This document shows, piece after piece, positions 7,716 through 63,370 of a stretch of 64,000 bases of DNA; position 1 is the first letter of the stretch; each line of letters opens with the position of its first letter. The DNA comes from Candidatus Omnitrophota bacterium (GTDB lineage Bacteria > Omnitrophota > Gorgyraeia > Gygaellales > UBA12090): the NCBI GenBank assembly GCA_030674475.1, contig JAUSCZ010000035.1, positions 74,682-138,681 on the forward strand. Direction: 5' to 3'. The notes beneath the pieces were generated by a model, which did no database searches, was not told the DNA's origin, and saw nothing but the letters and a program-made list of their open reading frames with translations. A program made the translations under genes and the position numbers.

Positions 7716-8345
7716 TTATTCCGTCTTCTTAGCAATAGTCCTGAATATCCACAAATAAACCCCTAAAAGGAAAAAGGCTCCGGGGGCGATGGTCAAAATC
7801 ACCCAGTTAGTCCAGGCCCCAGGCATCACCCTGTAACCTAAAATAGTGCCAAAGCCCAGAGGTTCGCGGATTAAAGCCATCAAAATCAGCATAAAGCTAT
7901 AACCAACACCATAGCCTAAACCATCCAAGAAAGAAAGCCAGGGCCCATTCTTGATCGCAAAGGCCTCGGCCCGGCCCATCAGGATACAGTTGGTAATAAT
8001 CAGGCCCACATAAGGGCCCATCTCTTCGCTGATAGGAGGAAAATAGGCCTTCAAAACCCTATCCACACAGATTACAAAGGTAGAGATAATTACCATATAA
8101 GCCAGCATCCGCACCCGGGAAGGTATGACATTACGAAAGAACGAAACAAAAAGACAGCTAAAGGCGGTGCATAAAGTAACCCCTATCCCCATAGCCAGGG
8201 CGTTCTCTAAGCGGTTAGTTATGGCCAGCATTGAGCAGATACCCAAAACCACGCAGAATGTGGGATGATCCTGCCACATCCCGATAGTTAAGGTCTTAAA
8301 CCACTTGGTCTGCTTTATGCTTCTTTTAAGCTGTTTCTTGGGCAT
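7716..8345 (-). CDS. rnfE: Rnf/Nqr complex subunit E (RnfE/NqrD family)
   Basis: 209-aa polytopic membrane protein paralogous to the A subunit; operon position. Confidence 0.75.
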   Translation of the reverse strand: MPKKQLKRSIKQTKWFKTLTIGMWQDHPTFCVVLGICSMLAITNRLENALAMGIGVTLCTAFSCLFVSFFRNVIPSRVRMLAYMVIISTFVICVDRVLKAYFPPISEEMGPYVGLIITNCILMGRAEAFAIKNGPWLSFLDGLGYGVGYSFMLILMALIREPLGFGTILGYRVMPGAWTNWVILTIAPGAFFLLGVYLWIFRTIAKKTE

Positions 8346-8435
8346 GGACCCTCGCTCCGCTCGGGAGTAGCCAGAGGCCAGTTGCCAGAGGCCAGATTTT
8401 TTTCTGGCTTCTGGCTTCTGGTTTCTGGTTACTAC
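8346..8435. repeat. 5'-UTR heptamer-repeat element: CCCTCGCTCCGCTCGGGAG-CCAGAGGCCAGTTGCCAGAGGCCAG-T7-CTGGCTTCTGGCTTCTGGTTTCTGGTTACT (copy 1 of 3)
   Basis: Near-identical to 58158-58243 and partially to 56055-56089. Lies immediately 5' of the rnfE ATG. The CCAGAGG and CTGGYTT arms can pair through G-U wobbles. Confidence 0.7.
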
Positions 8436-9007
8436 TTTCCGATCAGCAGGCTGAGCTTCTTTTGTATCGTTTCATTCAGCAATTTTTCTAAGGCCTTGCT
8501 GGAGCCAGTGGCGCCGGTAATCGCGTCTACTTCATTATTAGCCTTGGCCTTGCCGGAAGGCACAAAACTTATTCTAGGAATAATCTCTTTATTTCTAAAG
8601 CCTTTCAAATATTCAAATTCAGCGATCCTGCCGCCTAAACCAGGGGTTTCTTCTTGATGCAGTATCCTCAGCACCCGAATAGTCTTTAAATCCGAATTTA
8701 TGCTGAGTATGCCTTCAATAGTCCCCCATAATCCCGGCCCTTTAAATTTAAAGGCGGTGGTGCCGTCAACAGAAGCATAAAACACGCTATCTCCCTTCTC
8801 TAAGATCTTGACATTTTCATCAAAAAGCTCTAAGACATTTTCCGGACGGTAAGGAATCTCTAAAACATCCAAGACCGCGGATTTTAATTTCAATTCTTCA
8901 TTGCGGGCAATCATTGTCGCGGTTAAGGAGTTGATTCCAAAAAGCAATCCCCCGGAAATCGTTCCCATCGCGACCACAAAAATCAATATTCTTAAAGCGG
9001 ATTTCAT
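8432..9007 (-). CDS. rnfG: Rnf/Nqr complex subunit G (FMN-binding, RnfG/NqrC family)
   Basis: Single N-terminal TM helix, followed by the DAITGATGSS covalent-FMN attachment motif. Confidence 0.8.
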   Translation of the reverse strand: MKSALRILIFVVAMGTISGGLLFGINSLTATMIARNEELKLKSAVLDVLEIPYRPENVLELFDENVKILEKGDSVFYASVDGTTAFKFKGPGLWGTIEGILSINSDLKTIRVLRILHQEETPGLGGRIAEFEYLKGFRNKEIIPRISFVPSGKAKANNEVDAITGATGSSKALEKLLNETIQKKLSLLIGK

Positions 9008-11580: not shown

Positions 11581-11753
11581 GCTGGCTTGTTAATAATTTC
11601 ACAATCTAAATTTAAATAAAAAATGCTATTTTTGACGCAAACAGCATAACGGTTAAAATAACCCAAAAAACACCGTCTGTCAAGTTAAATCAGTAGGGGT
11701 GTCAAGCCAAATTAGAAATGTCGTATTATTATATTGGGATGACAGTTAAATCA

Positions 11754-11782
11754 GTAGGGGCAGGTTCAGAACCTGCCCCTAC
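11754..11782. repeat. REP-like palindrome variant GTAGGGGCAGGTTCAGAACCTGCCCCTAC overlapping the stop codon of the MiaB-like gene; likely terminator
   Basis: Perfect inverted repeat read from the sequence. Its left arm GTTAAATCAGTAGGGG is duplicated at 11684-11699. Confidence 0.65.
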
Positions 11783-13140
11783 ACTTTTTCCGCGATAAGG
11801 CCGTCTTTGTGGATTTTTAGCGGCCGGGCGGTAACAATTGTATTTACCGCGATTCCCGGCCCCTCAGGGAGAAATACCTTGATATAATTTCCGCTATGGC
11901 TGGGGAAAAATCCATCATCCGCGAAGCCGCCTGGCGATTCAACCAGCACGTCCAGATCCTTACCAATATATTGCCGGCAGAAATCCCGCGCTAATTCCTG
12001 AGCCAATTCCCGCGCCTGCTTTATCCTATCTTTGATAATCTCGGGCCTCACCGTTGCCGGAAATCTCCAAGCGGCTGTATTCTTACGTGGGCTAAAAGGA
12101 AAGATGTGTATCTTTGCCGGGCGGACTTCTCTTAAAAAATTAAGGGTATTCTTAAAATTTTCCTCTTCTTCCCCGGGAAAACCCACCATAATATCGGTAG
12201 TCAACCCGATATCCGGCATAAGCCTCCTCAGCTTAAGGATTAACTCGCGGCAATCTTCAGCTGAGGCCTTGCGGTTCATCAACTTCAATAGTGTATCATC
12301 CCCACTTTGAAAAGAAATATGCAGATGAGGCATCAGCTTCTTAGAGGAAGCCATCTTTTCTGTCAGGCAATCGCGGACATCCAGGGCTTCAATTGAGCTA
12401 AGCCGGATACGCGAAATCCCGTCAATTTCCTCTAAGGCTTCAATAACCCTAAGCAAGCCGTCTTTAAGGCCCAGATCCTTTCCATAAGCGCCTAAGCAAA
12501 TCCCGCAAAGCACTATCTCCTTATAGCCGTTTTCAGCTAAACCTCTGGCTTCCTCAATAATTTCCACTAAAAAGCGGCTGCGGGATGAACCGCGCAATCT
12601 GGGAATTATACAATAAGAACAGCCGTTATCACAACCGTCCTGAACCTTCAGGAATGCCCGGGTGTGCCTATGAAAAGCGCTGATGGTTCGACTACGCTCA
12701 CCATCAATCCTGAGCGAAATCGAAGGACTGATGGTTGGTTTTTTAATACCTGATAACAGTTCAACTCTGGGAAGTAACTGTGTCATTGCGAGGGGTTTTT
12801 CAGTGTTAGCTAAAATAAAATCGGCAAGACGGTCTTTCTCTTGGTTTCCTAAAACCCCTGCCACCCCTTTAAAGCGCTTTAGCTTCTCCGGGTCATTTTC
12901 CGCGGAACAACCGGTAACAAAAACCCGGGCCCGGGGGTGAGAGCGAGAGAGTTTGCGAATCTCCTCTTGAGATAAAGTATCGGCCCTGCGGGTAACCGCG
13001 CAGGTATTCACTATATACACATCCGCGCCGGGTGAATCCTTGCTCTCTTTAAATCCCAGGGCAATCATTCTCTCCCGCAGAACCTGGCTTTCATATTGAT
13101 TAACCTTACAACCTAAAGTTTTAACCTCAAATGTTTTCAT
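11779..13140 (-). CDS. MiaB/RimO-family radical SAM methylthiotransferase (ORF called to 13173; probable start at 13140, MKTFEVKTLGC)
   Basis: N-terminal MTTase cysteines (KTLGCKVNQYES), a radical SAM CSYC motif, and a C-terminal TRAM-like region. Confidence 0.8.
   Translation of the reverse strand: MKTFEVKTLGCKVNQYESQVLRERMIALGFKESKDSPGADVYIVNTCAVTRRADTLSQEEIRKLSRSHPRARVFVTGCSAENDPEKLKRFKGVAGVLGNQEKDRLADFILANTEKPLAMTQLLPRVELLSGIKKPTISPSISLRIDGERSRTISAFHRHTRAFLKVQDGCDNGCSYCIIPRLRGSSRSRFLVEIIEEARGLAENGYKEIVLCGICLGAYGKDLGLKDGLLRVIEALEEIDGISRIRLSSIEALDVRDCLTEKMASSKKLMPHLHISFQSGDDTLLKLMNRKASAEDCRELILKLRRLMPDIGLTTDIMVGFPGEEEENFKNTLNFLREVRPAKIHIFPFSPRKNTAAWRFPATVRPEIIKDRIKQARELAQELARDFCRQYIGKDLDVLVESPGGFADDGFFPSHSGNYIKVFLPEGPGIAVNTIVTARPLKIHKDGLIAEKV
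12680..12732. repeat. in-frame intragenic palindromic element, family A copy 1 (CTGATGGTTCGACTACGCTCACCATCAATCCTGAGCGAAATCGAAGGACTGAT)
   Basis: 52 of 53 nt identical to 13693-13745, which lies inside a different gene and reading frame. Confidence 0.8.
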
Positions 13141-13141
13141 A

Positions 13142-13930
13142 CTATGACGTGAATAAACGCAAAAAGGCCACAACGCTGATTGCCGCGGTATCTACCTTCA
13201 AAACCAAATCTCCCAAAGACGCCCCAATACAACCGTTTTCCTTGGCTGACTTGATTTCCCGTGGGCTAAAATCGCCTTCCGGGCCGATAAAAATTATTAT
13301 TGAGGAGGGCTTAGTGCGCTGTGTAATAAAATCGCAAAAAACCTCTTTTAGGGATTTATTTCCTGGGCCTAAATGCGGAATAACCGCCAGTTCATAATTT
13401 TTTACCTGAGAGACAACTTTACTAAATTCACTGATCGGCTCAATCTCCGGAAGTTTTATCCTGCCGCACTGCTTAGAGGCCTCAACCGCAATCGCCTGCC
13501 AGCGCTTCAGCTTTTCTTTAGCCTTCTCAGGAGAATATTTAACTATGGTTCTTTCAGTCTTTATAGGTATAATCCTATCCACACCCAGATCCACGGTCTT
13601 TTCAATAATATAGTCCATCTTGACTTTCTTAGGCAGGGCGCAGGCTAAAGTGAGAGCTAATTCTGCAGACATAGCTTTTCTGACTTTACCCACTGATGGT
13701 TCGACTACGCTCACCATCAATCCTGAGCGAAGTCGAAGGACTGATAACTCCACCTTATTCTTAGCAATACTATCAATCAGACACTCGTATTCCCGGGACT
13801 TACCGTCAAAAACCAGCACCTGGTCTCCTTTTTTAAGCCGCCTAACCGAAGACAAGTGATGAATCTGGCCGGGGTCTAAAATAGTTATTCTATCCCGGAT
13901 TATATTCGCGCGAGGGCAATAGATACGCAT
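13142..13930 (-). CDS. rsmE: 16S rRNA (uracil1498-N3)-methyltransferase RsmE
   Basis: PUA-like N-terminal domain plus a SPOUT C-terminal domain, ~260 aa. Confidence 0.7.
   Translation of the reverse strand: MRIYCPRANIIRDRITILDPGQIHHLSSVRRLKKGDQVLVFDGKSREYECLIDSIAKNKVELSVLRLRSGLMVSVVEPSVGKVRKAMSAELALTLACALPKKVKMDYIIEKTVDLGVDRIIPIKTERTIVKYSPEKAKEKLKRWQAIAVEASKQCGRIKLPEIEPISEFSKVVSQVKNYELAVIPHLGPGNKSLKEVFCDFITQRTKPSSIIIFIGPEGDFSPREIKSAKENGCIGASLGDLVLKVDTAAISVVAFLRLFTS
13693..13745. repeat. in-frame intragenic palindromic element, family A copy 2
   Basis: Same 53 nt as 12680-12732. Translated in rsmE as SVLRLRSGLMVSVVEPSV, versus ISPSISLRIDGERSRTISA in the MiaB-like gene. Confidence 0.8.
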
Positions 13931-16219: not shown

Positions 16220-17864
16220 AAGTATATTTTTCGGTTTTCGCGTCCTTCCAGGAGTCAGCAGGCAAGCCTGCCTTATGAGCGCATAAATTAGAAAGGAACT
16301 CCTCCTTATTCCAGCCGGTCTCTTCAGCCACCTGAGGCAAAAATACCCCCTGGCTCCACCCCCGTTTGATCAACAAACCGTGCGTGCCTAACTGAAACTC
16401 AGCCACATCATCAATCTTTTTTAAAGGCGAGAGGACCGAAATTTCAATCTCAATATCCTTAAGCTCATCCTTGGTTACCGGCTCAAACCGGGGATCTCCG
16501 GTTGCCGACTCTATGGCCATATCCCTGATGGTTTCAAAAAGAGGCTTCTGGCCGATAATATTACCGATACAGCCTTTTAGCTTACCTTGCTTATGGATAG
16601 TTACAAAGGCACCGTTAATAGCCTTTAGCTGAGGATCATCTTCGCTAAAATCTAATTTTTTCCCGCTGGTTACATATTCCTGAATAGTCTTACGGGCAAT
16701 CTCCAGTAATCGCGCTTTCTGCGTATCATTCAACATAACTGTTTCTCCTGTCTTATCCTTATTAATTAAAGCTGATAAATACCCCACAGTCCACACCCCT
16801 TTTATCTTTTTACCGGAAACCTTAGCGGAATTAGTATGCCCCAAAAACTTTATTTGATTATAGCCTAAGCTTTGCGCGGTAAGTATCGCGCTGACCACCG
16901 GCAATCCCCCGCACATCTGGATTGAACCGTCTTTTAACTTCGCGTAAATATCCTGGGCAGACCCCGTTAGAAGCCTCTTACCGCTTTCAGATTGCTCCCC
17001 AGCTTCTAACGGGGCAGGCATCTTCCCTAAATAGGACAAAGTCAGCTTATCTACTCTCTCGGTTTCCTGGTAGTCATAACTGTGGCAAAGGTCCGTGGAA
17101 GCAATCAGCAACACATCTGAACGGCCCGCGATGGCTTTATTTAATATATCCGCCAAAACATTTAAACCGTGAAGGTCCGCGTCTCCAATCAAAATGGGAA
17201 CTATCTTAAAATCATCCAGGGTCTTTTGTAAGAAAGGAAGCTGAACCTCAATGGAATGTTCTTTTTCAAAAGCCTGAGGGATAAAGCTAATATTTTGGGA
17301 AGGAGAAATTATTTTTTGCGTAAAATCAGAGTCTACTTCTAGGTCTCCCAGGGGGGTTTGGAACTTACCGGATGGATATACTGAGACTCCCTTAAAATAA
17401 TACTGGTGACTGGGCCCCAGGAGGACCACGGTTTTATAAGGACGGCCTTTAATTAACTTATAGCCCAAGGCGGCGGTCGGCCCGGAGAAATCATAGCCGG
17501 CATGGGGAGAAATCAAACAAAATATTTCGCCTGTGGTGAGCGGTGGGTTGGCCGCGTTAAGCAGGTTTTCAACTTTATGGCTAAGCTCATCTTTATCCGC
17601 GGGATAAAACTGCCCGGCCACATTCGGTTTTTTTATCTCCTCGCCAAAGCTTAGGACATTAAAGCCAAAAAGCGCTCCCCCAAAAAAAAGGAAAAAAACA
17701 ATTGCTGTCCCTACTTTTCTCTTTGAAAAAAAGGAACTTCCCCCTTTCGTAAAGGGGGATGGAGGGGGATTTTCTAGGTTAGGGGAAATTTGGGAGCATT
17801 TACACAATGCACTAAGCCCAGATTCCGGCGATTGTTTCCTGACAAAACTTGCAATGCCCATCAA
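16185..17864 (-). CDS. AmmeMemoRadiSam system fusion protein: Memo1-like (protein B) plus AMMECR1 (protein A) domains, with N-terminal hydrophobic segment; start codon uncertain
   Basis: The Memo-like core is ISPHAGYDFSG...LCHSYDY. The AMMECR1 core is GAFVTIHKQGKLKGCIGNI...DPRF. A radical SAM partner is adjacent. Confidence 0.7.
   Translation of the reverse strand: MMGIASFVRKQSPESGLSALCKCSQISPNLENPPPSPFTKGGSSFFSKRKVGTAIVFFLFFGGALFGFNVLSFGEEIKKPNVAGQFYPADKDELSHKVENLLNAANPPLTTGEIFCLISPHAGYDFSGPTAALGYKLIKGRPYKTVVLLGPSHQYYFKGVSVYPSGKFQTPLGDLEVDSDFTQKIISPSQNISFIPQAFEKEHSIEVQLPFLQKTLDDFKIVPILIGDADLHGLNVLADILNKAIAGRSDVLLIASTDLCHSYDYQETERVDKLTLSYLGKMPAPLEAGEQSESGKRLLTGSAQDIYAKLKDGSIQMCGGLPVVSAILTAQSLGYNQIKFLGHTNSAKVSGKKIKGVWTVGYLSALINKDKTGETVMLNDTQKARLLEIARKTIQEYVTSGKKLDFSEDDPQLKAINGAFVTIHKQGKLKGCIGNIIGQKPLFETIRDMAIESATGDPRFEPVTKDELKDIEIEISVLSPLKKIDDVAEFQLGTHGLLIKRGWSQGVFLPQVAEETGWNKEEFLSNLCAHKAGLPADSWKDAKTEKYTFSALVFSEKKQ
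16961..17019. repeat. in-frame intragenic palindromic element, family B copy 1 (ACCCCGTTAGAAGCCTCTT...CTTCTAACGGGGCAGGC)
   Basis: About 85% identical to 35410-35470. Encodes MPAPLEAGEQSESGKRLLTGS in the middle of the Memo-AMMECR1 protein. Confidence 0.75.
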
Positions 17865-19728: not shown

Positions 19729-19804
19729 TGGTGGACCCGAGCGGGATCGAACCGCTGACCTCTACAATGCGAATGTAGCGTTCTCCCAGCTGAACTACGG
19801 GCCC
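19729..19804 (-). tRNA. tRNA-Ala (anticodon CGC), CCA encoded
   Basis: Hand-folded cloverleaf: acceptor GGGCCCG/CGGGTCC with the G3-U70 Ala identity pair, anticodon stem CTACA/TGTAG with loop TTCGCAT, and a TTCGATC T-loop. Confidence 0.85.
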
Positions 19805-19839: not shown

Positions 19840-20253
19840 CTAAGGACAACTCACCGCAGAACAACTTGCACAACCAGCGCCAGTCTTACTGGTCGTGCCG
19901 TTCTCATACATGTTTATAGTATAGTTGGTAGTGCCACAGGGATTTTTTTCCGAATTTCTTAGCGCCCGAGCTACAACAGTATTCGCAGACTCATCAACTA
20001 CCGTATAGGTAAAATAGGTGCCATTGGTAGTATTGTCAATATCTAAATTATCAAAACTATTAGTATAATTCCCGTTTTCTAAATAATAGCGCGTCTGGGC
20101 GCCGCGGATAGCGGCTAAGTTGGTTAGGGCTTCGCTCTGGCGGGAGCGCTCCACGGTTTTGGTATACTGGGGTATGGCCAGGGCGGACAGGATGCCAATG
20201 ATCACCACCACTACCACCAGTTCGATTATATTAAAGCCGGAATTTTTATTCAT
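19840..20253 (-). CDS. type IV pilin / pseudopilin
   Basis: GFNIIELVVVVVIIGILSALAIPQY prepilin N-terminus. Confidence 0.75.
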   Translation of the reverse strand: MNKNSGFNIIELVVVVVIIGILSALAIPQYTKTVERSRQSEALTNLAAIRGAQTRYYLENGNYTNSFDNLDIDNTTNGTYFTYTVVDESANTVVARALRNSEKNPCGTTNYTINMYENGTTSKTGAGCASCSAVSCP

Positions 20254-20257
20254 TTTT

Positions 20258-20327
20258 ACCCCTCCCCGCCTCCCCTTGCTAAGGGGAGGATTTCTTGTCG
20301 TAGGGGCGGGTTCGAACCCGCCCCTAC
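20258..20327. repeat. composite intergenic element: SD-sequestering hairpin module (CCCCTCCCCGCCTCCCCTTGCTAAGGGGAGGATTTCTT) plus REP palindrome GTAGGGGCGGGTTCGAACCCGCCCCTAC
   Basis: Fills the whole 76-nt intergenic gap and ends 4 nt from the pilin ATG. Copies occur at 37752-37821, 38456-38495 and 59380-59424, with related arms at 26623-26760. Confidence 0.8.
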
Positions 20328-20329
20328 TA

Positions 20330-20725
20330 TTAGAATCCCATTCTTTTAATCACCTCGGTCTGCGCGGAATCAAACTGGCCGGACTTATTCCGGGTGGCGA
20401 TCAATTCACAATTGCCGTCATCAATTAACCTTATCCGGTAACTCCAGCCGGAGTTAGAGCTTTTTTTACCCAGGGCATCTTTTAGCCCCGGAGCTTCAGT
20501 AGCCAGCTCGTCAATTGTAGAGGCGTATTTGCCGTATATGCCGCGATACATTGTCTGAATCTGCCCTAAGTAAGACAAGTTGGACTCAACCTTGGTCAGC
20601 GCGGTTTTATCCATCAGCTTAAAGTAATGTGGCATAGCCAAAAACCACAAGATCACAATGAGCACCGCCAGGACCGTTAGTTGTAACGACCTCTGACCTT
20701 TATCCTGAGAGCTGTCTTCGGGCAT
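20330..20725 (-). CDS. hypothetical small membrane protein, degenerate pilin-like
   Basis: Single TM segment (LTVLAVLIVILWFLAMP) followed by a small beta-rich domain, located within the pilin operon. Confidence 0.4.
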   Translation of the reverse strand: MPEDSSQDKGQRSLQLTVLAVLIVILWFLAMPHYFKLMDKTALTKVESNLSYLGQIQTMYRGIYGKYASTIDELATEAPGLKDALGKKSSNSGWSYRIRLIDDGNCELIATRNKSGQFDSAQTEVIKRMGF

Positions 20726-26622: not shown

Positions 26623-26760
26623 GTAGGGGCGGGTTCGAACCCGCCCCTACCCCCGATAAGGGGAGGATTTCTTTCCGCCTGCCCCGCCAGCGGCGGTGGC
26701 CTCCCCCTGATAAAGGAAGTTTTCTTATCCCCTCCTTTACAAGGAGGGGTAGGGGAGGTA
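26623..26760. repeat. composite repeat: REP palindrome GTAGGGGCGGGTTCGAACCCGCCCCTAC followed by several CCCC/GGGGAGG-type hairpins
   Basis: Read directly from the sequence. Sits in the intergenic region between the PilM-like stop (26766) and the PilO-like start (26611). Confidence 0.75.
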
Positions 26761-26765
26761 TTTTT

Positions 26766-28319
26766 TTAGCTGCCGGAAATTTCAAAAACCGTAATCTTGT
26801 ATCCACCGCTCTGGGTATTGCGGGTAGAGGTTATCTCCAGGCGGCTTAAGCCAGCCATAAAATCAGGGCTCTCTTTAAGCTTTTTTAAGAAATCAGCTAT
26901 TGCCTCTTCCTCTCGCGCCTTATCCCCCAGATAAATCGCGCCTTTAAGTAAAAGCGATTTTGCTTTATCCTTTACCCCGGCCACAAGGTCAAACTGCTCA
27001 ATCCACAAGCCGGTGCGGACTGTCTCAGGCAGGACATTAAAAGACACAGTCAAGGACACCCGGGAAGCAATTAATTCCTGGATAAATAAAAGTTTTTTCT
27101 TATATTCCACCCTTCTCTGACGCAGGCCATCCAAATCCAGAATGCCTAAGTTCGCCGGGGCCAAGGCGCTTTCAGCCTCAGATTTTATGCGCTCTAAATT
27201 CTTAGCAGTGCTGAACTGTTCGGGCAAAGGAAAACCATAGGCCGCGGCCACTACTACCGCCGCCAGCACTAAAGGCCGCTTAACCGTATCAAAGCTAAGA
27301 GTGAATGCCGGAGCGGGAGCTGATATGTCTTTAGGCGCGCTCAAGCGGTATTCTTTGCGCGATTTTAATAAATCTACAGATAAATTTACCTTTATGGTAT
27401 CTCTGAGGCCTACGGCACAGGCCTTAAACGCGTCCAAGTCAGTCAAGGTGTTTAAAGCGCTATTCTGATCTAATTCCAATAACTGCACCTCTATACTTAA
27501 GTTTTTGCTCAATTCGGAGATTAGCCCGGGATTAGCATTTTTAGCCACCAGGATAATCTTATCCACCGAAGAGCCGGAAAATTGCCGGCGGAAATAACCT
27601 AGGGAAACCCTGAGCTCGCTGGTTAAGCGTTCCTGAGAAACCACCTCCGCGCCGCTTCCTGTGGAAGGCGCGTCCTGGGCCCGGGCGAGCCGGACATCCC
27701 GGCTAAAACAGGGAAAACCCGCGTTCACTATGGAAAACTCCATATCCAAATCATCATCAATAGCCATAAACGCGATAGACTGCTTAAGGTCAAGCTGTTT
27801 AGCGGCTGAAATTATCCTGAGCAAGGCAAAACTGGCCGATTCAATAGCCTTTAACTGAATACCCATTTGCTTAAATAAGCTAAGATAATAATCAAAGTTA
27901 CTCCTGGTAGCCGCCACATAGAAGATATCCATCTTGTCTGAACCTTTATTTAAGCGATGCTGATAGTCAAAAACCAGGTCCTCGGTTTTAAAAGGGAGAT
28001 ACTTCCTGGCCTCAAAGCTTATCCCGGAGGCAATTTCGGATTTTACCAGAGAAGGAATCTGAAAACCCCGGATAAAAAGGTCCTTGCTGGTAAGGCCAAG
28101 CACTGCTTCCCGAGCGCTAAATTTATTCTCTTTAAGAAATCCCTTGATCTCCCGCGACAAGTTGGCCTGAGCGCTGTCTTCGGCTGTCGGAGTGCCGGTT
28201 AAAGCCTTATCCGCCGCAACCGCTATAGCTAAGCTGGCCTGCCGGATAATATCCTTGCCCCGCAGTTCAACCGCGACAATCTTATCTTTGCCAAAATATA
28301 TTCCTAATTTATTTCCCAT
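26766..28319 (-). CDS. pilM: type IV pilus assembly protein PilM (actin-like ATPase fold), probably fused to PilN-like C-terminal TM segment
   Basis: PilM-like N-terminus (MGNKLGIYFGKDKIVAVEL), with a C-terminal TM segment LVLAAVVVAAAYGF. Confidence 0.65.
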   Translation of the reverse strand: MGNKLGIYFGKDKIVAVELRGKDIIRQASLAIAVAADKALTGTPTAEDSAQANLSREIKGFLKENKFSAREAVLGLTSKDLFIRGFQIPSLVKSEIASGISFEARKYLPFKTEDLVFDYQHRLNKGSDKMDIFYVAATRSNFDYYLSLFKQMGIQLKAIESASFALLRIISAAKQLDLKQSIAFMAIDDDLDMEFSIVNAGFPCFSRDVRLARAQDAPSTGSGAEVVSQERLTSELRVSLGYFRRQFSGSSVDKIILVAKNANPGLISELSKNLSIEVQLLELDQNSALNTLTDLDAFKACAVGLRDTIKVNLSVDLLKSRKEYRLSAPKDISAPAPAFTLSFDTVKRPLVLAAVVVAAAYGFPLPEQFSTAKNLERIKSEAESALAPANLGILDLDGLRQRRVEYKKKLLFIQELIASRVSLTVSFNVLPETVRTGLWIEQFDLVAGVKDKAKSLLLKGAIYLGDKAREEEAIADFLKKLKESPDFMAGLSRLEITSTRNTQSGGYKITVFEISGS

Positions 28320-28641: not shown

Positions 28642-28758
28642 AATCTGCCTCTGGCGCTTAGATTTTACTTGATTCTGAGCTCTGCGAAGAATCTTAAGGA
28701 ACAATCTGCCTCTGGCGCTTAGATTTTACTTGATTCTGAGCTCTGCGAAGAATCTTAA
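28642..28758. repeat. two tandem 61-bp direct repeats (AATCTGCCTCTGGCGCTTAGATTTTACTTGATTCTGAGCTCTGCGAAGAATCTTAA...), motif AGATTTTACTTG present 3 times
   Basis: Read from the sequence. Lies upstream of the excisionase-like gene, so these are candidate operator/iteron sites or a small RNA. Confidence 0.7.
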
Positions 28759-35054: not shown

Positions 35055-35473
35055 TGGTCACATCCAGTTCTATTAATAAGGCCGCCTTGGTTAGTAATAG
35101 TCATATTCCTACCACTACAGGCCAAACCGGAAACCGCGCGGGTAGCCGTGGCAGTAAAGCTTGGGCTGGTGGTGGCGTTAATAGAATAAGTAAAACTGTC
35201 TCCTTCTAAATCAATCCCTAAATTCTCAGTATCATTAGTATACTCTCCCTCGTTCAAATAATACCTCTGCTGGGCAGAGTAGATTAATTGCAGGTTAGCC
35301 TCGGCTTCTTTGGCCTTATTTTTCTCTGAAGATCGGCTAAAATTACCCATATTCAGGCTAACCAAAATCCCGATAATTACCAAAACCACCAGCAACTCAA
35401 TCATAGTAAACCCCGTTAGAAGCCTCTTGCCTCTTACAGGTTGCTCATTAACTTCTAACGGGGCAGGCCCCAT
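35048..35473 (-). CDS. type IV pilin with 21-aa leader (ORF track starts at TTG 35485; ATG at 35473 has an AGGAGA SD upstream)
   Basis: ...GKRLLTG|FTMIELLVVLVIIGILVS prepilin cleavage/methylation site. Confidence 0.7.
   Translation of the reverse strand: MGPAPLEVNEQPVRGKRLLTGFTMIELLVVLVIIGILVSLNMGNFSRSSEKNKAKEAEANLQLIYSAQQRYYLNEGEYTNDTENLGIDLEGDSFTYSINATTSPSFTATATRAVSGLACSGRNMTITNQGGLINRTGCDQW
35410..35470. repeat. family B palindromic element copy 2, encoding the pilin leader peptide
   Basis: About 85% identical to 16961-17019. The CCCCGTTAGAAG / CTTCTAACGGGG arms are an inverted repeat. Confidence 0.75.
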
Positions 35474-36091
35474 TTTCACTTGCAAATCTCCTTATAAGTG
35501 CGATAAATCGCACCGCTACGCAACATGAGATAAATCGCCTACCTGCGGTAAGCAGGCACCGCTACGCGACATGAGTGACCCACGGTAGGCGGAGGTAAAA
35601 CCCGCGCCCTTATCACTCCCAAGGAGCAACTGCATCTCAGAGTATCGGTATAACCAACTCAAGAACAGACTTTTAAAAACTCCTGCTATAATAAAAAACC
35701 AAGCTCTACTTTTTAAGGGTAGCTTGGCTTCGCACTCTAAGAATAAAACCGAGTGCTCTTTTCTTGTTTGAGCTTAACAACTTGGCTTTATTCTGGTTTT
35801 AAAGTTAAGTTGTCGGTGCGCCAGGCTACCTTATCCAGAGGGCTTTCCCCTCCTTTACTTCTGGTAAGACTTAGGTCCTTTAGCTTTGCGCCCCGCGGTT
35901 TCCCGCGGTTTGCCCCGGCCTTAATTTCCTGTGCCGGCCTACCGGTTTCCTGTTTGCGCGGTAGATTTTCGGATGTGGTAATTAAAGTATACACCATAAA
36001 AGAACTAATTACAAGGGTAAAACCGCCTTTTCAGGAAAGCGCTTTCTTGGGAGGAATTTTATCGGTTGAACTCTTTGGTTATCGCTTAGCT

Positions 36092-37345: not shown

Positions 37346-37747
37346 TTAATCCCGGTCGGTGGCGATATTTACCTGTTCAACCCCTAAATCCCGGGCCATA
37401 TCCCAGACCTCAACCACCCGGCCCAGCCTTGCTCCCTGATCCGCCATAATCAAAACCGGGCGTTTGGTTTTCTTGGCCTCATTAAGAACAATCTTAATCT
37501 CTTTGGCAGTTAAAACCTTTTTATCCAAATAAATGACATTTTCCCGGCTGATAGTAATAATAATGGTGTCTCCTTCGCTGGCCTCCGCGCTTACCGCCTT
37601 GGGTAGATTCACCTTGATTCCCGACTGCACGATAAAACTTGAGGTCAGCATAAAAAATATCAAAAGCTGAAACACCATATCTATCAAAGGGGTAATATCA
37701 ATCTGGCGCAGGCCATGCTCCAATTCCATATGTCTTTTAAAGCGCAT
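37346..37747 (-). CDS. exbD: biopolymer transport protein ExbD/TolR
   Basis: Single TM segment (IDITPLIDMVFQLLIFFMLTS) plus a periplasmic domain; 133 aa. Confidence 0.85.
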   Translation of the reverse strand: MRFKRHMELEHGLRQIDITPLIDMVFQLLIFFMLTSSFIVQSGIKVNLPKAVSAEASEGDTIIITISRENVIYLDKKVLTAKEIKIVLNEAKKTKRPVLIMADQGARLGRVVEVWDMARDLGVEQVNIATDRD

Positions 37748-37751
37748 TTTT

Positions 37752-37821
37752 ACCCCTCCCCGCCTCCCTTTGTTAAGGGGAGGATTTCTCCCCGTAGGGG
37801 CGGGTTCGAACCCGCCCCTAC
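37752..37821. repeat. composite intergenic element (SD-hairpin module plus REP palindrome) between exbB stop and exbD start
   Basis: ACCCCTCCCCGCCTCCCTTTGTTAAGGGGAGGATTTCTCCCCGTAGGGGCGGGTTCGAACCCGCCCCTAC. The exbB stop codon TAG lies inside the palindrome. Confidence 0.8.
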
Positions 37822-38450
37822 TCCGTAAGGAAATTGACTAATTCGGTTGCCGCTTTTTCCATCTCTAAAATCACGGAGTTAACCCGGCCTACCAGGTAAT
37901 TATAAGTGATAAAAGCCGGTATGGCCACCACCAGGCCTGCCACCGTGGTTAAAAGCGCCTCCCAAATTCCCCCGGCCAGGTCTCCCGGGCTGACCGGGTG
38001 GCTGGCGGTAGACTTGACTTGAATAGTATTAAAACAAGTAACCATTCCGGTAACCGTGCCTAAAAGCCCTAAAAGAGGGGCAATGTGGGCAATGGTGGCC
38101 AAAACGTTTAAATTCTTTTCTAATATCGGTATCTCATACAAAGAGGCGTCTTCAATAGCCTCCTTAATATCCTGACGGCTCCTGCCATGCTTTAGTATCC
38201 CGGCCTTTAAAATCTGGCCTACCGGGCTTAAGGTTTTATCACAGTCATAAATTGCCTCTTTTATCTTCTGTTGTTTTAACTTCTCCAATACATTCCTCAG
38301 GAAATAAGTAGAATTTATTTTTATCTTTCTCAGATACCACAATTTCTCTATAGTTATTGCCAGGGCCCATATTGAACTGATAAGTATGGGCCACATAACC
38401 GGCCCGCCAGCCAAAAAAAGCTTCCAAAAATTCATCTGCCAGATATTCAT
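37818..38450 (-). CDS. exbB: MotA/TolQ/ExbB proton-channel family protein
   Basis: Three TM helices with a conserved ExbB core (GLLGTVTGMV). Confidence 0.85.
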   Translation of the reverse strand: MNIWQMNFWKLFLAGGPVMWPILISSIWALAITIEKLWYLRKIKINSTYFLRNVLEKLKQQKIKEAIYDCDKTLSPVGQILKAGILKHGRSRQDIKEAIEDASLYEIPILEKNLNVLATIAHIAPLLGLLGTVTGMVTCFNTIQVKSTASHPVSPGDLAGGIWEALLTTVAGLVVAIPAFITYNYLVGRVNSVILEMEKAATELVNFLTE

Positions 38451-38455
38451 TTTCT

Positions 38456-38495
38456 TACCCCTCCCCGCCTCCCCTTGTTAAGGGGAGGATTTTTT
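38456..38495. repeat. SD-hairpin module copy (CCCCTCCCCGCCTCCCCTTGTTAAGGGGAGGATTTTTT) directly upstream of exbB ATG
   Basis: Read from the sequence; this copy has no REP palindrome attached. Confidence 0.8.
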
Positions 38496-38499
38496 GCCT

Positions 38500-38640
38500 C
38501 CAACAAGTTATTAAACTCTAAATCCTAAATTCTAAACTCGAAACCCTAAACAAATCCCAAACCCAAAACATTATATTTTTAGTTTTGAGTTTATGATTTT
38601 GCCTGCCTGCCGGCAGGCAGGAGTTTGTTTAGGATTTAGG
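38500..38640. terminator. large inverted-repeat region (CTAAATCCTAAA... / ...TTTAGGATTTAGGG arms around the perfect palindrome GCCTGCCTGCCGGCAGGCAGG)
   Basis: Read from the sequence; lies downstream of the TPR gene stop. Confidence 0.55.
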
Positions 38641-55137: not shown

Positions 55138-56054
55138 ATTCCTCCTAATAACTTTAAAAGAATCGCCTTTTGCGCGTGCAATCTGTTTTCCGCTTGGTCA
55201 AAGACTACCGATTTTGAGGAATCAATCACCTCATCGGTTATTTCTTCTCCCCGGTGCGCCGGCAGACAATGCATAATCAAACAATTTTTCTTGGCGGAGG
55301 AAACAAGTTTTTGATTAATTTGATAATCCCGGAATATTTTCCTTCGCGCCTTGGCCTCTTTTTCCTGGCCCATGCTCGTCCAGACATCAGTATAAATCAC
55401 ATCCGCGTTTTTGCAAGCTTTTAATGGGTCGCGGCTTAAGCTGATCAAGGCCCCGGAAATCGAAGCCATACCCAAGGCCTCTTTAAAAACTGTCTTATCC
55501 GGCTCAAATTTTTTGGGTGTGGCGATATTCAGGTTTAAGCCGATTTTCGCGCAGCCGTAAAGAAGAGAATGGGTAACATTGTTACCATCGCCGCAATAAG
55601 TTAAGGTCCTGCCTTTAAACGAGCCGAATTTCTCTCTTATGGTATATAAATCCGCTAAGGCCTGGCAGGGATGCGAAAGGTCGGAAAGCCCGTTAATCAC
55701 CGGCACACTGGCGTATTTTGCCAGTTCTATAATATTCTTATGCTCAAAGGTCCGCAGAACTATTCCGTCAACATAGCGAGAGAGCGTCTGAGCCACATCC
55801 CTGATTGCCTCTCTCACCCCTAAATTTATTTCCCCCGGACCCAAATAAATGCTTAACCCCCCAAGCTGAAATATGCCCACCGCGAAAGATACCCTGGTCC
55901 TGTTGGACGGCTTCTGAAAAATAAGGGCCAGGGTCTTTCCTTTTAAACTCTGGGAGTATTTTTGCTTGTTTTCTTTAAGCTTGTCCGTAAGCAGAAAAAT
56001 CTCTTCTATTTCCTTCAAGCTTAAATCCTTAACTGATATTAAATCTTTTTTCAT
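55134..56054 (-). CDS. argF: ornithine carbamoyltransferase
   Basis: STRTR carbamoyl-phosphate motif and HCLP ornithine-binding motif. Confidence 0.85.
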   Translation of the reverse strand: MKKDLISVKDLSLKEIEEIFLLTDKLKENKQKYSQSLKGKTLALIFQKPSNRTRVSFAVGIFQLGGLSIYLGPGEINLGVREAIRDVAQTLSRYVDGIVLRTFEHKNIIELAKYASVPVINGLSDLSHPCQALADLYTIREKFGSFKGRTLTYCGDGNNVTHSLLYGCAKIGLNLNIATPKKFEPDKTVFKEALGMASISGALISLSRDPLKACKNADVIYTDVWTSMGQEKEAKARRKIFRDYQINQKLVSSAKKNCLIMHCLPAHRGEEITDEVIDSSKSVVFDQAENRLHAQKAILLKLLGGI

Positions 56055-56068
56055 TCTCTGGTTGCTGG

Positions 56069-57256
56069 TTACTGGTTTCTGGTTACTACAGTCAACACCA
56101 TATCCAATATCCCCACTGCCTTATCAATCTGCTTGCAAGTTACATTTAAGGCCGGCATCAGCCTTAAGACCGTTTCGTGAGTGCAGTTAATCAATAAACC
56201 TCTTTTAATACACTCCTCGACTACCGGCTTCCCTGCCGTATTCAGTTCAATGCCAATCATCAACCCCAGGCCGCGGACTTCTTTGATTATAGAATATTTC
56301 TTAGCCAACTCTGATAATCTCTTTTTTAAATATTCCCCCATTTCCCGGGCATTGGCAATCAGCTTTTCTTTACGCAGGGCCTTAAATACCCCTAAAGAGG
56401 CCCTACAGACCAGAGGGCTCCCTCCAAAGGTAGAGGCATGTCTTCCCGGGCCCAGGATATCAGCAATTTCTTTTCTCGCCACCATTGCTCCGATAGGTAA
56501 ACCCCCTCCCAGGGCCTTGGCTAAGGTCATTATATCCGGAGTGATTCCGTAGTGCTGATACGCGAACATCTTGGCAGTCCGGCCTAGGCCGGTCTGGACC
56601 TCATCCGCGATCAAAAGTATCTTTTTCTCATCGCAAAGCTTTCTTAAATATAAGACAAAATCCTGATCGGCAACATTTATCCCTCCTTCGCCCTGCACCA
56701 GCTCAATAATAATTCCCGCGGTTTTATCCGATAGCGCGTTTTTCAAGGCATCCCTGTCATTATAGGCAACGCTTTTAAAACCCTCAGGAAGCGGTTCGAA
56801 GCCCTCTTGATATTTGCTCTGACCGGTCATAGTCAGGGACGCCAGGGTCCTGCCGTGAAAGGAATTCTCAAATGAGATTATCTCATATCTGCCCGCGCCA
56901 TACGCCCGGGTGAGCTTTACCGCGGCCTCATTGGCCTCAGCCCCGGAATTGGCAAAAAACACCTTACCGGGAAAGGAGTGATAAATTATTTCTTTGGCTA
57001 ATTTTGCCTGGGGAATAGACAGGTAATTGTTAGGCAGATGAATCAGCTTATCTATCTGGTCCCGGACCGCCGAGACCACATCCGGATGGCAATGCCCCAA
57101 AGAACTCACCCCCCAGCCGGGAAAGAAATCCAGGTATTCCTTGCCGTCAACATCAATAACCTTCATCCCCTTTCCTTTGACAAAAATCAAAGGTATCCGG
57201 GTATAGGTAGGCATGATGTAATCCTGATAGGCCTGAAAGATTTCTTGCTTCTTCAT
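56069..57256 (-). CDS. argD: acetylornithine aminotransferase (class III)
   Basis: Class III PLP-aminotransferase signature (...ADEVQTGLGRTA...). Confidence 0.85.
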   Translation of the reverse strand: MKKQEIFQAYQDYIMPTYTRIPLIFVKGKGMKVIDVDGKEYLDFFPGWGVSSLGHCHPDVVSAVRDQIDKLIHLPNNYLSIPQAKLAKEIIYHSFPGKVFFANSGAEANEAAVKLTRAYGAGRYEIISFENSFHGRTLASLTMTGQSKYQEGFEPLPEGFKSVAYNDRDALKNALSDKTAGIIIELVQGEGGINVADQDFVLYLRKLCDEKKILLIADEVQTGLGRTAKMFAYQHYGITPDIMTLAKALGGGLPIGAMVARKEIADILGPGRHASTFGGSPLVCRASLGVFKALRKEKLIANAREMGEYLKKRLSELAKKYSIIKEVRGLGLMIGIELNTAGKPVVEECIKRGLLINCTHETVLRLMPALNVTCKQIDKAVGILDMVLTVVTRNQ

Positions 57257-57302: not shown

Positions 57303-58157
57303 TTATTTAATGATTTCGGTGCCGATTCCCTGCTTGGTAAAGATCTCTAAGAGCAAGGCGTGGGGAATCCGGGCATCTATAATATGGGTCTTCTTTACCG
57401 TGGCCTCTAAAGCGGATATACAGCTCTTCACCTTAGGGATCATCCCTTGATGCACTGCCCCTTCCTTAATCAAACCATTGGCCTCGGAAATAGTCAAGGT
57501 GGAAATAAGCGAACTAGTGTCTGAGGTAGAGCGCATAATTCCCCGCACATTAGTCAAAACTACTAATTTTTCCGCGCACAGGCTGGAGGCAACCCTGGAG
57601 GCCGCCTCATCAGCATTAATATTATAGGTTTTTCCGTCTTTGCCTTTTCCCATCGGACACAATACCGGGATAGAGTAATTCTTAGTTTCCCGAAGTATCG
57701 GCTCAGTATCTATCGCTTCCACCTCCCCCACCAGGCCCAAATCCTTAGCCTCTTGTCTTTTACGGGCTAAGATTACCCCGCTATCTTTACTGGAGAACCC
57801 TGTCGCCTTTTGGCCTAATTCCTGAAGCTCCGAAACAATTATCGCGTTAAGCTTCTCCAGCTCTTCCTCGACCACCGCCAGGGTCTTCGCGTCAGTAACC
57901 CGCATCCCGTCCACAAACTCGGTCTTCATACCCTCCTGCTTCATCCTCTCGGATATATTCGGCCCGCCGCCGTGAACCAGGACCGGGCACAAACCCATAT
58001 AGCTTAAGAAAACTATATCCTCCAAAACCCCCTGGCGGATTTTTTCATCGCCTAAAATGCTCCCACCATATTTTATCACCATCACCTTGCGGTGAAATTC
58101 CTTAATATAAGGCAAAGCCTCAATCAAAACATCCGCTTTTCTAATCGCGTCTTCCAT
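57303..58157 (-). CDS. argB: acetylglutamate kinase
   Basis: Amino-acid kinase family (VIKYGGS...VLVHGGGP). Confidence 0.85.
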   Translation of the reverse strand: MEDAIRKADVLIEALPYIKEFHRKVMVIKYGGSILGDEKIRQGVLEDIVFLSYMGLCPVLVHGGGPNISERMKQEGMKTEFVDGMRVTDAKTLAVVEEELEKLNAIIVSELQELGQKATGFSSKDSGVILARKRQEAKDLGLVGEVEAIDTEPILRETKNYSIPVLCPMGKGKDGKTYNINADEAASRVASSLCAEKLVVLTNVRGIMRSTSDTSSLISTLTISEANGLIKEGAVHQGMIPKVKSCISALEATVKKTHIIDARIPHALLLEIFTKQGIGTEIIK

Positions 58158-58243
58158 GTGCCCTCGCTCCGCTCGGGAGAAACCAGAGGCCAGTTGCCAG
58201 AGACCAGATTTTTCTGGTTACTGGTTACTGGTTTCTGGTTACT
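58158..58243. repeat. 5'-UTR heptamer-repeat element copy 2 (same as 8346-8435), immediately upstream of argB ATG
   Basis: CCCTCGCTCCGCTCGGGAGAAACCAGAGGCCAGTTGCCAGAGACCAGATTTTTCTGGTTACTGGTTACTGGTTTCTGGTTACT. Confidence 0.75.
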
Positions 58244-59379
58244 TAGTTATATTTCGCGTTTATCCTGATATATTCCGGGGTCAGGTCTGAAGTGTAAACT
58301 ACGGCCTTACCTCTGCCAAGTCTTAAATCTATCTTGACTATTATATCCTTTTTCCGGAAAGAATCACCCTCTATTTTTATTTTTTCTCTTACCTCTACCC
58401 CGGATGCCCCCACCGCCGCCACTATCCTTCCCCAGTTAGCGCCTCCGCCGTAAACAGCGGTCTTGAAAAGATTGGAATTGGCCACGGCCAAAGCCGCTTT
58501 TTTAGCCTGCGTATTATCCTTGGCTCCGGATACCTGAATAGTTATAAACTTGCTGGCTCCTTCAGCATCCAAAATAATCATCTTGGCTAAACCCAGGCAA
58601 ATTTCACTTAAGGCAGTTTTAAATTTAGAAAAATTACGCGTGCCTAAACAGACTTTCTTGTTTTCCGCTAACCCGTTAGCCAAAATAATCACGCTGTCAT
58701 TAGTGCTCATACATCCGTCAATAGTAATCATATTAAAAGAATATTCAACTGCCTGCTTCAAGGCCTCTTTTAATGCCGAATACTCGATCAAGACATCCGT
58801 AGTGATAAAGCAAAGCATCGTAGCCATATCCGGAGCAATCATTCCCGCGCCCTTGGCAATTGCCCCGATAGTTACTTTTTTTCCGCCTATCTCTAACTCC
58901 CGCGCTAAGGCCTTGGGCTTAGTATCGGTAGTCATTATAGCCTGGGCTGTCTTATTACCGCTGCTTCTATCTAAAGAGCCAACCAAAGACGGCAAGGCCT
59001 TCTTTATCTTGGAGAAATCAAGCGGACGGCCAATAATTCCGGTTGAGGCAACCAGCACCATTTTTTTATCTATTCCCAACAACTCCGCGCTAAGGCAGGT
59101 GGTGTTCTTGGCCGTTTCCATTCCCGGCTTTCCGGTATAGCAATTAGCATTCCCACTGTTGACTATTATAGCTTGGGCTTTTTTTGATTTCAGATATTCC
59201 CGGCAAAGCTCAACCGGAGCCGCGGCAAACTTATTTTTGGTAAACATACCACAGGCGGATGCCGGGACATCGGAATATATCAAAGCCAAATCCAGGCCGC
59301 TGGATTTCTTTATCCCCGCCTCTATTGCCTGAGATCTAAACCCCTTAGCCAGGGTTATAGCGTTTTTATACTCTTTCAT
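58243..59379 (-). CDS. argJ: bifunctional ornithine acetyltransferase / N-acetylglutamate synthase
   Basis: ATMLCFITTD autoproteolytic site region. Confidence 0.85.
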   Translation of the reverse strand: MKEYKNAITLAKGFRSQAIEAGIKKSSGLDLALIYSDVPASACGMFTKNKFAAAPVELCREYLKSKKAQAIIVNSGNANCYTGKPGMETAKNTTCLSAELLGIDKKMVLVASTGIIGRPLDFSKIKKALPSLVGSLDRSSGNKTAQAIMTTDTKPKALARELEIGGKKVTIGAIAKGAGMIAPDMATMLCFITTDVLIEYSALKEALKQAVEYSFNMITIDGCMSTNDSVIILANGLAENKKVCLGTRNFSKFKTALSEICLGLAKMIILDAEGASKFITIQVSGAKDNTQAKKAALAVANSNLFKTAVYGGGANWGRIVAAVGASGVEVREKIKIEGDSFRKKDIIVKIDLRLGRGKAVVYTSDLTPEYIRINAKYN

Positions 59380-62539: not shown

Positions 62540-62616
62540 AATATTTTAAACCATCGAACAAAGGAACAAAGAAGAACAAAGAAGACGCTTTATATAACTT
62601 ATTAATAGGCAATAAA

Positions 62617-63303
62617 TTACCTATTAACTATTTCTCTTCGCGGCCTACCATTCCGAGGCATAAATACTCCTCGCTCTAATACTAATCTTCTTAAGAATTC
62701 ACCTGAACCCAGCGGTTTTTCAAAATCATCAAATAATTCCTCTTCTTTTTCATCAAATTCCAGTAGAAAACTCTGATATTTCAATCTTCTTCCTTCAGCC
62801 GTTAGTCCAAAAGTGGCAAATAAAGGATTCTCCTCTGTAAGACTGTCCACTTTACCATAAATATAATATGCCGCGCTGCTAAACGGATATTCAGCCGCTG
62901 ACTGAACAAGCCCGGCATTAATCGGATTTCTCTCAATATATCTTCCGCAGGTTAATAGATATTCTTCCTTCTCGACAGCCTGGCATTTAAATCTACCCTG
63001 AAAAAGATGCCCAACGGAGTTATATTTTTTATGATAATAGTAAACATAAGAACGCGCGATACCGGCCATAATGGACGATATTTCTTTAGGATTATCCAAC
63101 GCCAGCAGGAGATGGTAGTGATTAGACATAATGACCCAGTGATGAATCCTTAAGTTACGCTGGCGGGTATATTTAGTTAATATCTCAATAAAACGGTTAT
63201 AATCTTCGTTATCATGGAAAATATTATTCTTGGCGTTTCCTCTATTAAAGATATGATAGATCAGCGACCCAGTTATACTATAAGAACGGGCTGTATAAGG
63301 CAT
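62617..63303 (-). CDS. IS200/IS605-family Y1 (HUH) transposase, REP-associated tyrosine transposase (RAYT)-like
   Basis: HUH motif (SNHYHLLL), a downstream catalytic Tyr region (YVYYYHKKY), and a ~228 aa size. Confidence 0.7.
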   Translation of the reverse strand: MPYTARSYSITGSLIYHIFNRGNAKNNIFHDNEDYNRFIEILTKYTRQRNLRIHHWVIMSNHYHLLLALDNPKEISSIMAGIARSYVYYYHKKYNSVGHLFQGRFKCQAVEKEEYLLTCGRYIERNPINAGLVQSAAEYPFSSAAYYIYGKVDSLTEENPLFATFGLTAEGRRLKYQSFLLEFDEKEEELFDDFEKPLGSGEFLRRLVLERGVFMPRNGRPRREIVNR

Positions 63304-63370
63304 AGATTAAACTATATTGGAGAATGATAATGTTGTCAAATAGTTTTTGTGTATCTATAAGGTATTCAAT

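Follow-up and report, generated by a model that had tools for sequence, protein, structure and literature searches.

What is the short GC-rich palindrome that recurs at gene junctions of this stretch of Omnitrophota DNA, and which role, if any, does it play there? The original prediction, made from the 64,000 nucleotides analysed here as a whole (the window), described it as a REP-like element and proposed that it could act as a terminator or mRNA stabiliser, mimic the T-arm of a tRNA, or be the substrate of a RAYT-type transposase encoded in the same window.

A search of the window recovered every predicted copy, namely three exact copies of the perfect 28-nt palindrome GTAGGGGCGGGTTCGAACCCGCCCCTAC and one 29-nt form, GTAGGGGCAGGTTCAGAACCTGCCCCTAC, an A/T stem variant with a central base. 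No further copies of GTAGGGGCGGGTTCGAACCCGCCCCTAC were found in the window at up to three mismatches, and a looser search with GTAGGGGC..GCCCCTAC returned only the copies at 11754, 20300, 26623 and 37794. The total within the 64 kb is exactly four palindromes, plus one partial relic; in 100 shuffles, GTAGGGGCGGGTTCGAACCCGCCCCTAC gave no match, the chance expectation being zero. The elements are the following:

11683-11699, unstranded: partial relic AGTTAAATCAGTAGGGG, which repeats 11744-11760, a segment made up of the first 7 bases of the 11754 palindrome and its flank on the left
11754-11782, unstranded: 29-nt REP-like palindrome, overlapping the TAG stop (11779-11781) of a minus-strand MtaB-type gene
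20300-20327, unstranded: 28-nt perfect REP-like palindrome, 2 nt past the TAA (20330-20332) of the minus-strand ORF 20330-20725
26623-26650, unstranded: 28-nt perfect REP-like palindrome, ending 11 nt before the start codon of a PilO-like gene, the ATG at 26611
37794-37821, unstranded: 28-nt perfect REP-like palindrome, in which 37818-37820 is the TAG stop of the minus-strand exbB (gene 37818-38450)

The minus strand carries 59 of the 61 long ORFs of the window, and all four palindromes are located at junctions of co-directional minus-strand genes, three of them touching the upstream stop codon, in line with the predicted intergenic or stop-straddling position. As only about 12% of the window is non-coding, the probability of finding four out of four copies there by chance is around 2e-4. 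The TAG stops of exbB and of the radical-SAM gene 11779-13173 correspond to bases 2-4 of the palindrome in the minus-strand reading, so that the exbB stop does lie inside the palindrome, but not as its first three bases, as had been stated. The overlap of the 11754 copy with a gene stop was also right, and the gene described as MiaB-like is MtaB-type according to its named homologues (the closest ones come from Omnitrophota, with 44-53% identity). The 20300 copy follows a TAA, giving three in-frame stops (TAA-TAG-TAG), and lies 46 nt upstream of the ATG of a pilin-like gene, 19840-20253 on the minus strand. The 26623 copy is found downstream of the PilM-like gene 26766-28319, also on the minus strand, and exbD starts 46 nt beyond the 37794 palindrome. 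The relic, 17 nt long, is separated by 61 nt from the 11754 copy, and its flank is single-copy in a relative (L130).

The whole element is GC-rich and 28-29 nt long, with a stem of 12-13 bp, and its predicted folding energy is -14.7 kcal/mol as DNA (z -6.1), and -24.7 and -23.6 kcal/mol as RNA. All four copies have GTAG at the 5' end and the complementary CTAC at the 3' end, the tag being paired. No REPIN or BIME doublets were found in the window, where all copies are singletons with their nearest neighbours more than 6 kb apart. The REP-like character is thereby borne out, as these are short GC-rich palindromes, with a GTAG tag, extragenic and supplying TAG stops.

Most copies had also been described as neighbours of a hairpin module containing a Shine-Dalgarno (SD) sequence, and three of the four indeed abut one:

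20254-20299, minus strand: SD-hairpin module, with the anti-SD/SD hairpin CCTCCCCTT-AGC-AAGGGGAGG, then GGGGAGGGG, then ATG, placed after the palindrome on the mRNA strand
26651-26765, minus strand: modules of the SD-hairpin-like and GC-hairpin kinds, combined in a mosaic that abuts the 26623 palindrome
37748-37793, minus strand: second copy of the SD-hairpin module, which together with its palindrome is 94% identical to 20251-20328

At the 20300 and 37794 palindromes, this module is 46 nt long and consists of the anti-SD/SD hairpin (CCUCCCCUU..AAGGGGAGG), GGGGAGGGG and AUG, and the folding prediction for the mRNA includes both hairpins, that of the palindrome and that of the module (z -3.2). 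The module exists without the palindrome at 38450 and 59373, and the palindrome without the module at 11754, so each is a module in itself, and the two are frequently joined in the manner of BIME-like mosaics. As an observation in its own right, the anti-SD/SD hairpin, GGGGAGGGG and a start codon form a sort of "portable RBS" before several genes (20251-20299, 37745-37793, 38450-38500, 59373-59424 and 26651-26765), whose copies are gained or lost among relatives (the window has 102 nt more than L116, and L119 has 61 nt more), and with which the GC hairpin GGCCACCGCCGYTGGCGGGGCAGGCGG travels.

The window holds other repeats as well. A 53-nt repeat with an internal GATGGT..ACCATC hairpin (12680-12732 and 13693-13745, 98% identical) lies inside two coding sequences, mtaB and an rsmE-like gene, in different frames; its mtaB copy is kept in the relatives L127-L130, where the rsmE copy was not found. 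An element of 59 nt with inverted ends, ACCCCGTTAGAAGC...GCTTCTAACGGGGC, is present at 16961-17019 and 35410-35468 (86% identical) and also in L115, L120 and L131, representing a second REP- or MITE-like family. Another 59-nt repeat, CATG..CCCTCGCTCCGCTCGGGAG.., followed by heptad-like CCAGAGG/CTGGTTW runs, occurs at several gene starts (8343-8447, 56054-56087, 58155-58243 and 59660-59693), two of its copies being 92% identical. The AT-rich intergenic region 28642-28758 contains a perfect 56-nt direct duplication, with 61 nt from start to start, and has 41-nt repeats nearby, at 28869 and 29643. Finally, a c-di-GMP-I riboswitch (RF01051; 47 bits, with the gathering score at 35) is found at 35812-35924 on the minus strand, upstream of a pilin-like gene region.

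The comparison with related genomes shows how stable these palindromes are. The exact 28-mer was found in only nine metagenome stretches, mostly from the clade of the window and several of them orthologous to it. At the pilin junction (the 20300 site), L115 and L119 keep all 28 bases of the palindrome between flanks that are 80-86% identical; at the pilM-pilO junction (the 26623 site), L116 also keeps the 28 bases, with flanks 91-93% identical, and lacks the 102 nt of modules adjoining the palindrome in the window. The stability of these two sites across flanks of 80-93% identity indicates that recent mobility is limited. At least two further sites with the 28-mer exist in relatives of the clade (L111/L113 and L112/L117), and the presence of three identical 28-mers in the window implies copying within the lineage.

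The search for empty sites in relatives, suggested along with the original prediction, was successful at two of the four sites, exbB-exbD and the end of mtaB, which therefore show presence/absence polymorphism. Contigs L120 and L121 were reached by an exact look-up of ExbD. In L121, which has 89% DNA identity and an identical ExbD protein, the exbB-exbD spacer reads TAA-TACAGGAGAGAATAAAA-ATG, with 17 nt versus the 70 nt of the window, and the whole 66-nt block, palindrome and module included, is missing. Contig L120 is 100% identical to the window and terminates inside the palindrome, as repeats cause such breaks in assemblies. The mtaB end is occupied in L127-L130 (homologues with 85-86% and 79% amino acid identity), where the palindrome and its TAG stop are kept with one stem mismatch each, a sign of decay. 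In L131, whose homologue is 71% identical, the site is empty, and the gene differs in its C-terminus, provides its own stop codon and has an AT-rich hairpin unrelated to the palindrome. At the two sites with empty alleles, the occupied ones show replaced rather than added sequence, and hence yield neither a clean insertion junction nor a target motif. The palindromes of the window have thus been gained or lost on a time scale that goes from species to genera.

The family to which they belong extends far beyond this clade. A scan with the pattern GTAGGGGCRGGTTCN{0,1}GAACCYGCCCCTAC, using one genome per species, gave matches in at least 110 stretches from at least 45 assemblies and about 14 phyla. 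Among the matches listed there are members of the Chloroflexota, Bacillota, Thermodesulfobacteriota, Bacteroidota, Ignavibacteriota, Armatimonadota, Nitrospirota, Omnitrophota, Fibrobacterota, Calditrichota, Actinomycetota, Deinococcota, Lentisphaerota and Pseudomonadota, together with others. Nearly all the copies among those listed have the 29-nt form, with the consensus GTAGGGGCRGGTTCNGAACCYGCCCCTAC, in which the central base is free and an R/Y pair covaries, and Omnitrophota of UBA12090 bear the same A/T variant as the 11754 copy of the window. Some genomes among the matches listed have many copies (about 28 loci in one Bacillota MAG and about 20 in one Clostridiales MAG), these per-genome counts from the species scan being lower bounds. 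The donation of stop codons was considered as an enriched property of the whole family, and discarded: the TAG of the palindrome closes long ORFs in 23 of the 120 matches listed, indistinguishable from the roughly 17% expected, with a control that is noisy in GC-rich genomes.

In other genomes, the 29-nt form is found inside, beside and far from the genes of one RAYT-like Y1 family. Between 18 and 19 of the 120 matches listed lie in frame inside RAYT-like genes, always just after the HUH motif (MPNHVHGII), and there the palindrome is translated as VGAGSEPAPT. Of the 110 loci listed, 24 hold a RAYT of one family (as found by tblastn), with the palindrome inside or at the gene in 22 of them; at other loci listed, copies are found just upstream or downstream of the RAYT gene, and they lie beside it in L123, L024, L066, L088 and L034. 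The family has at least 7,983 homologues at E<=1e-10, and the palindrome-encoded peptide is present in 116 of the best 120 of these, among which the loop residues are its only variable pair (SE, FK, LK or LE). At the nucleotide level, the stem codons are fixed (GTA GGG GCG GGT .. CCC GCC CCT AC) and the loop codons vary in palindromic pairs.

Since both the pattern scan and the word-based protein search are biased toward the query sequence, loci found through proteins with other variants were checked. The Brocadia locus L123 has GTAGGGGCRGGTTTSAAACCYGCCCCTAC embedded in the gene, 17 nt upstream of its start and overlapping the TAG stop of the RAYT, and carries this variant two more times, dispersed within 8 kb. 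Locus L125 has GGTTTTAAACC embedded, L126 has GGTTTGGAACC embedded plus two dispersed copies, and L124 encodes a family member that has no insert and is flanked by inverted GTAG REPs of another type. All the embedded loci found in this way share the same stem nucleotides, which points to a constraint on a DNA or RNA hairpin and not on the peptide.

Regarding the enzyme, the palindrome-carrying family passes the Pfam Y1_Tnp cut-off of 23 with 27-30 bits and matches the NCBIfam model REP_Tyr_transpos (the RayT equivalog) over its full length with 62-70 bits, under the 80-bit cut-off. A PDB search with a single RAYT sequence gave no match, a profile of 32 sequences being needed to obtain the best solved relative, TnpA_REP from E. 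coli (4ER8, E 5e-4), with which the HUH and catalytic Tyr motifs are aligned, as is the RAYT motif (WQxR[FY][WY]EHxIRN..YIxxNP); ISDra2 TnpA has a gap opposite the palindrome-encoded segment. The family has, in summary, the features of RAYT/TnpA_REP proteins: a Y1 HUH fold, the HUH motif, the catalytic Tyr and the RAYT motif. Tandem expansions of the half-sites inside these genes (VGAGS VGAGS ... EPAPT EPAPT) are frequent, adding up to about 100 extra residues (L013, L029, L064, L068, L069 and L089; proteins P0015-P0026), and some genes contain frameshifted copies (L029 and L097), the RAYT gene appearing as a hot spot for hairpin-driven rearrangement. As to genomic context, the embedded-palindrome RAYT at 7788-8357 of L125 has an AAA_13 gene on one side and hsdR on the other, nested as it is in a type I restriction-modification operon with overlapping start and stop codons, and the RAYT of L123 comes after a type IIG/BREX-like methylase-helicase pair.

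The above raises the possibility that a large RAYT-like family carries its own REP substrate in frame, enzyme and substrate making up an inseparable unit that moves between phyla. We put this forward tentatively, as a reading that falls somewhat short of an even chance. If true, it would explain the near-identical REP of about 14 phyla, the embedded hairpin may feed back on the expression of the enzyme or switch it off through +/-1 frameshifts, and the 28-mers of the window would be orphaned, frame-breaking derivatives of such a unit. In the searchable literature, we found no description of a REP embedded in the reading frame of a RAYT, at a fixed position and with the same sequence across phyla, and earlier surveys of RAYTs analysed flanking sequence only, so this arrangement, the evidence for which comes from outside the window, may be undescribed. 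Such a RAYT, if real, would provide a compact enzyme-substrate pair for biochemistry and one whose horizontal transfer could be traced, touching on how REPs spread and why RAYTs persist.

The window has a Y1 gene of its own, which had been put forward as the possible partner of the palindromes. The features of this unit, 62579-63428, are:

62579-62598: copy of AAGAAGACGCTTTAYATAAC, inverted, downstream of the ORF
62617-63303, minus strand: ORF of the Y1 transposase type
63373-63392 and 63409-63428: two copies of AAGAAGACGCTTTAYATAAC in tandem, upstream of the ORF

The presence of a transposase-type gene is confirmed by a Pfam Y1_Tnp match (1e-14), and its score of 70 bits against NCBIfam REP_Tyr_transpos, below the 80-bit cut-off, likewise speaks for this gene as a candidate partner. 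Even so, it is very improbable that the palindromes are its substrates: the ORF is bracketed by its own AAGAAGACGCTTTAYATAAC inverted repeats, with no GTAGGGGC copy nearby, and in a BLASTP comparison with the palindrome-carrying family (E 0.17) only the HUH motif is in common. No other copies of AAGAAGACGCTTTAYATAAC were found in the window, and the unit resembles the TIR-flanked ("TIRYT") type described in PMC3733652. Judging by its sequence, this ORF is from a different subfamily and is not the partner of the palindromes. A tblastn search of the window and the related contigs with two RAYTs of the embedded type matched only the palindrome-encoded peptide; remnants of RAYT pseudogenes around the palindromes were also considered, and discarded, as that peptide alone was matched. 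The proposed relation to RAYTs holds, then, in that the family is tied to RAYT-type genes in other genomes, but not in the choice of ORF 62617-63303 as the partner.

In our opinion, the four palindromes are quite probably GTAG-class REP elements, non-autonomous hairpins that were gained at gene junctions and belong to one cross-phylum family with a RAYT signature. This explanation is built on the observed identity of the copies, their extragenic position at stop codons, their gain and loss among relatives, and the linkage between palindrome and RAYT in other genomes. According to it, a RAYT from the palindrome-carrying family, whose gene would lie beyond the window or have been lost, would have spread the hairpin in trans after recognising it, GTAG/CTAC feet included, as single-stranded DNA. 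The 28-nt form, minus the central base, would have arisen once and then multiplied within the lineage, a single origin and copying that find support in the three identical copies of the window and the at least two further sites in relatives. Transcribed inside operon mRNAs, the 12-bp hairpin (about -25 kcal/mol as RNA) would probably block 3' exonucleases at the stop codon, and would probably keep termination on the upstream cistron apart from initiation on the next one, with its strong SD module; a role in RNA, as a putative stabiliser or translation insulator, is therefore plausible. Several observations speak against this explanation: four copies in 64 kb are a modest number, and all are singletons; neither the window nor the related contigs yielded a RAYT of the palindrome-carrying family; the empty sites show no clean insertion junction; two sites have stayed occupied across diverged flanks; and the 28-nt form, rare elsewhere, would put a RAYT gene out of frame if embedded in it. 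We know of no direct demonstration of RAYT-driven REP transposition in any system.

One alternative, which overlaps with the REP explanation and is compatible with it, considers palindrome and SD module mainly as a selected intercistronic RNA element rather than selfish DNA. The stop-codon hairpin would then uncouple translation and shield the cistron before it from decay at the 3' end, and the module would supply a ribosome-binding site that is both strong and insulated. In E. coli, mRNA upstream of REP hairpins is stabilised by them, and here contact with a stop codon and with an SD module is each seen in three of the four copies, palindrome and module together are 94% identical at two junctions and form one gain/loss block at exbB-exbD, both hairpins are predicted in the mRNA, and the palindrome is conserved at 28 of 28 positions despite flanks that are only about 80% identical. 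However, the same palindrome is found in unrelated contexts across about 14 phyla, genes included, its TAG closes long ORFs at the rate of a random TAG (the 23 of 120 matches listed, versus about 17%), and relatives tolerate stem mismatches and even its full absence, all of which makes this alternative possible but rather unlikely.

The two other roles in RNA that had been proposed fare worse. Even though the stem is strong and GC-rich, and the 11754 copy lies at the end of mtaB, before a promoter-like site for the rnf genes, there is scarcely any chance that the hairpins are Rho-independent transcription terminators: none of the four copies has a T-run 3' of it on the coding (minus) strand, a consensus scan flags the 11754 copy alone and only on the antisense strand, all copies are inside or between co-directional genes, and three of them sit within functional units (the pilin genes, pilM-pilO and exbB-exbD). 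Still harder to believe is that the element imitates the T-arm of a tRNA, or a minihelix, whether by descent from a tRNA or as a target of tRNA-processing enzymes. In favour of this, its GGTTCGAACC core looks like G53-T54-T55-C56-R57-A58, and a stem of 11-12 bp is about as long as an acceptor stem stacked on a T stem. Nevertheless, no tRNA or tmRNA model matched the palindrome at E values up to 10, and a T stem of 5 bp closing a loop of 7 nt requires a pairing register that the palindrome does not have; the loop of the common 29-nt form is TTCNGAA (N being free), which places a G where the invariant A58 is expected, and other variants have TTTSAAA or TTTTAAA. ARAGORN and Rfam detected only one tRNA in the window, a tRNA-Ala at 19729-19804, and no Rfam family came near its gathering score at the palindromes.

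For the window itself, the outcome is mostly a clarification: the palindromes are best taken as REPs instead of tRNA mimics or terminators, and the nearby Y1 gene can be set aside as their partner. This adds REP-type elements to an uncultivated Omnitrophota-like lineage, where the natural occupied and empty alleles represent ready-made controls for the effect of a REP at a stop codon on the expression of an operon.

Much of what is seen here fits in known REP systems. REPs, the GTAG tag, RAYT partners, the donation of TAG stops, intragenic REPs and TIR-flanked relatives of RAYTs had all been described (PMC3733652, PMC2817692, PMC3333891, PMC3479197, PMC3116915, PMC5581495). The elements of the GTAG REP superfamily (Di Nocera et al. 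2013, PMC3733652; Nunvar et al. 2010, PMC2817692) are, like the ones studied here, GC-rich palindromes of 20-40 bp with a terminal GTAG, extragenic and mostly located after unidirectional ORFs, present in many phyla and linked to RAYTs, and their termini often supply a TAG stop (PMC3733652). The long stem resembles that of the GTAG-24 class (12-13 bp). However, the tag of this superfamily is usually single and unpaired, whereas here GTAG pairs with CTAC to give a perfect, orientation-free palindrome; the copies of the window also differ in being singletons, and the consensus in being near-identical across phyla.

The REP/BIME system of E. coli, with TnpA_REP (4ER8; PMC3333891, PMC3479197), includes the best solved relative of the partner enzyme family, and is alike in that REPs flank the gene at some loci and form mosaics with other short motifs. 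It differs in that here the REP is also found inside the ORF of the enzyme, whose score with the RayT model is 62-70 bits against a cut-off of 80, and in that the window contains no cognate gene. The REPIN-RAYT systems of Pseudomonas (Bertels and Rainey 2011, PMC3116915; Bertels et al. 2017, PMC5581495) share the condition of non-autonomous hairpin repeats, the copying of which is attributed to a domesticated Y1 transposase present as a single copy, and the host range of their Group 4 (Cyanobacteria, Chlorobia and Caldilineae) is like that of the palindrome-carrying family. REPINs, though, are vertically inherited doublets of inverted REPs, whereas the units described here are single and symmetric, and their presence with the same sequence in about 14 phyla suggests horizontal spread or a strong constraint. 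Finally, the palindromic elements of Rickettsia and further intragenic REPs (cited in PMC3733652) are also in-frame palindromes that add a short peptide to a protein, but these insert in assorted host genes, whereas here the recurrent host is the presumed mobilising enzyme, always in the same loop after the HUH strand.
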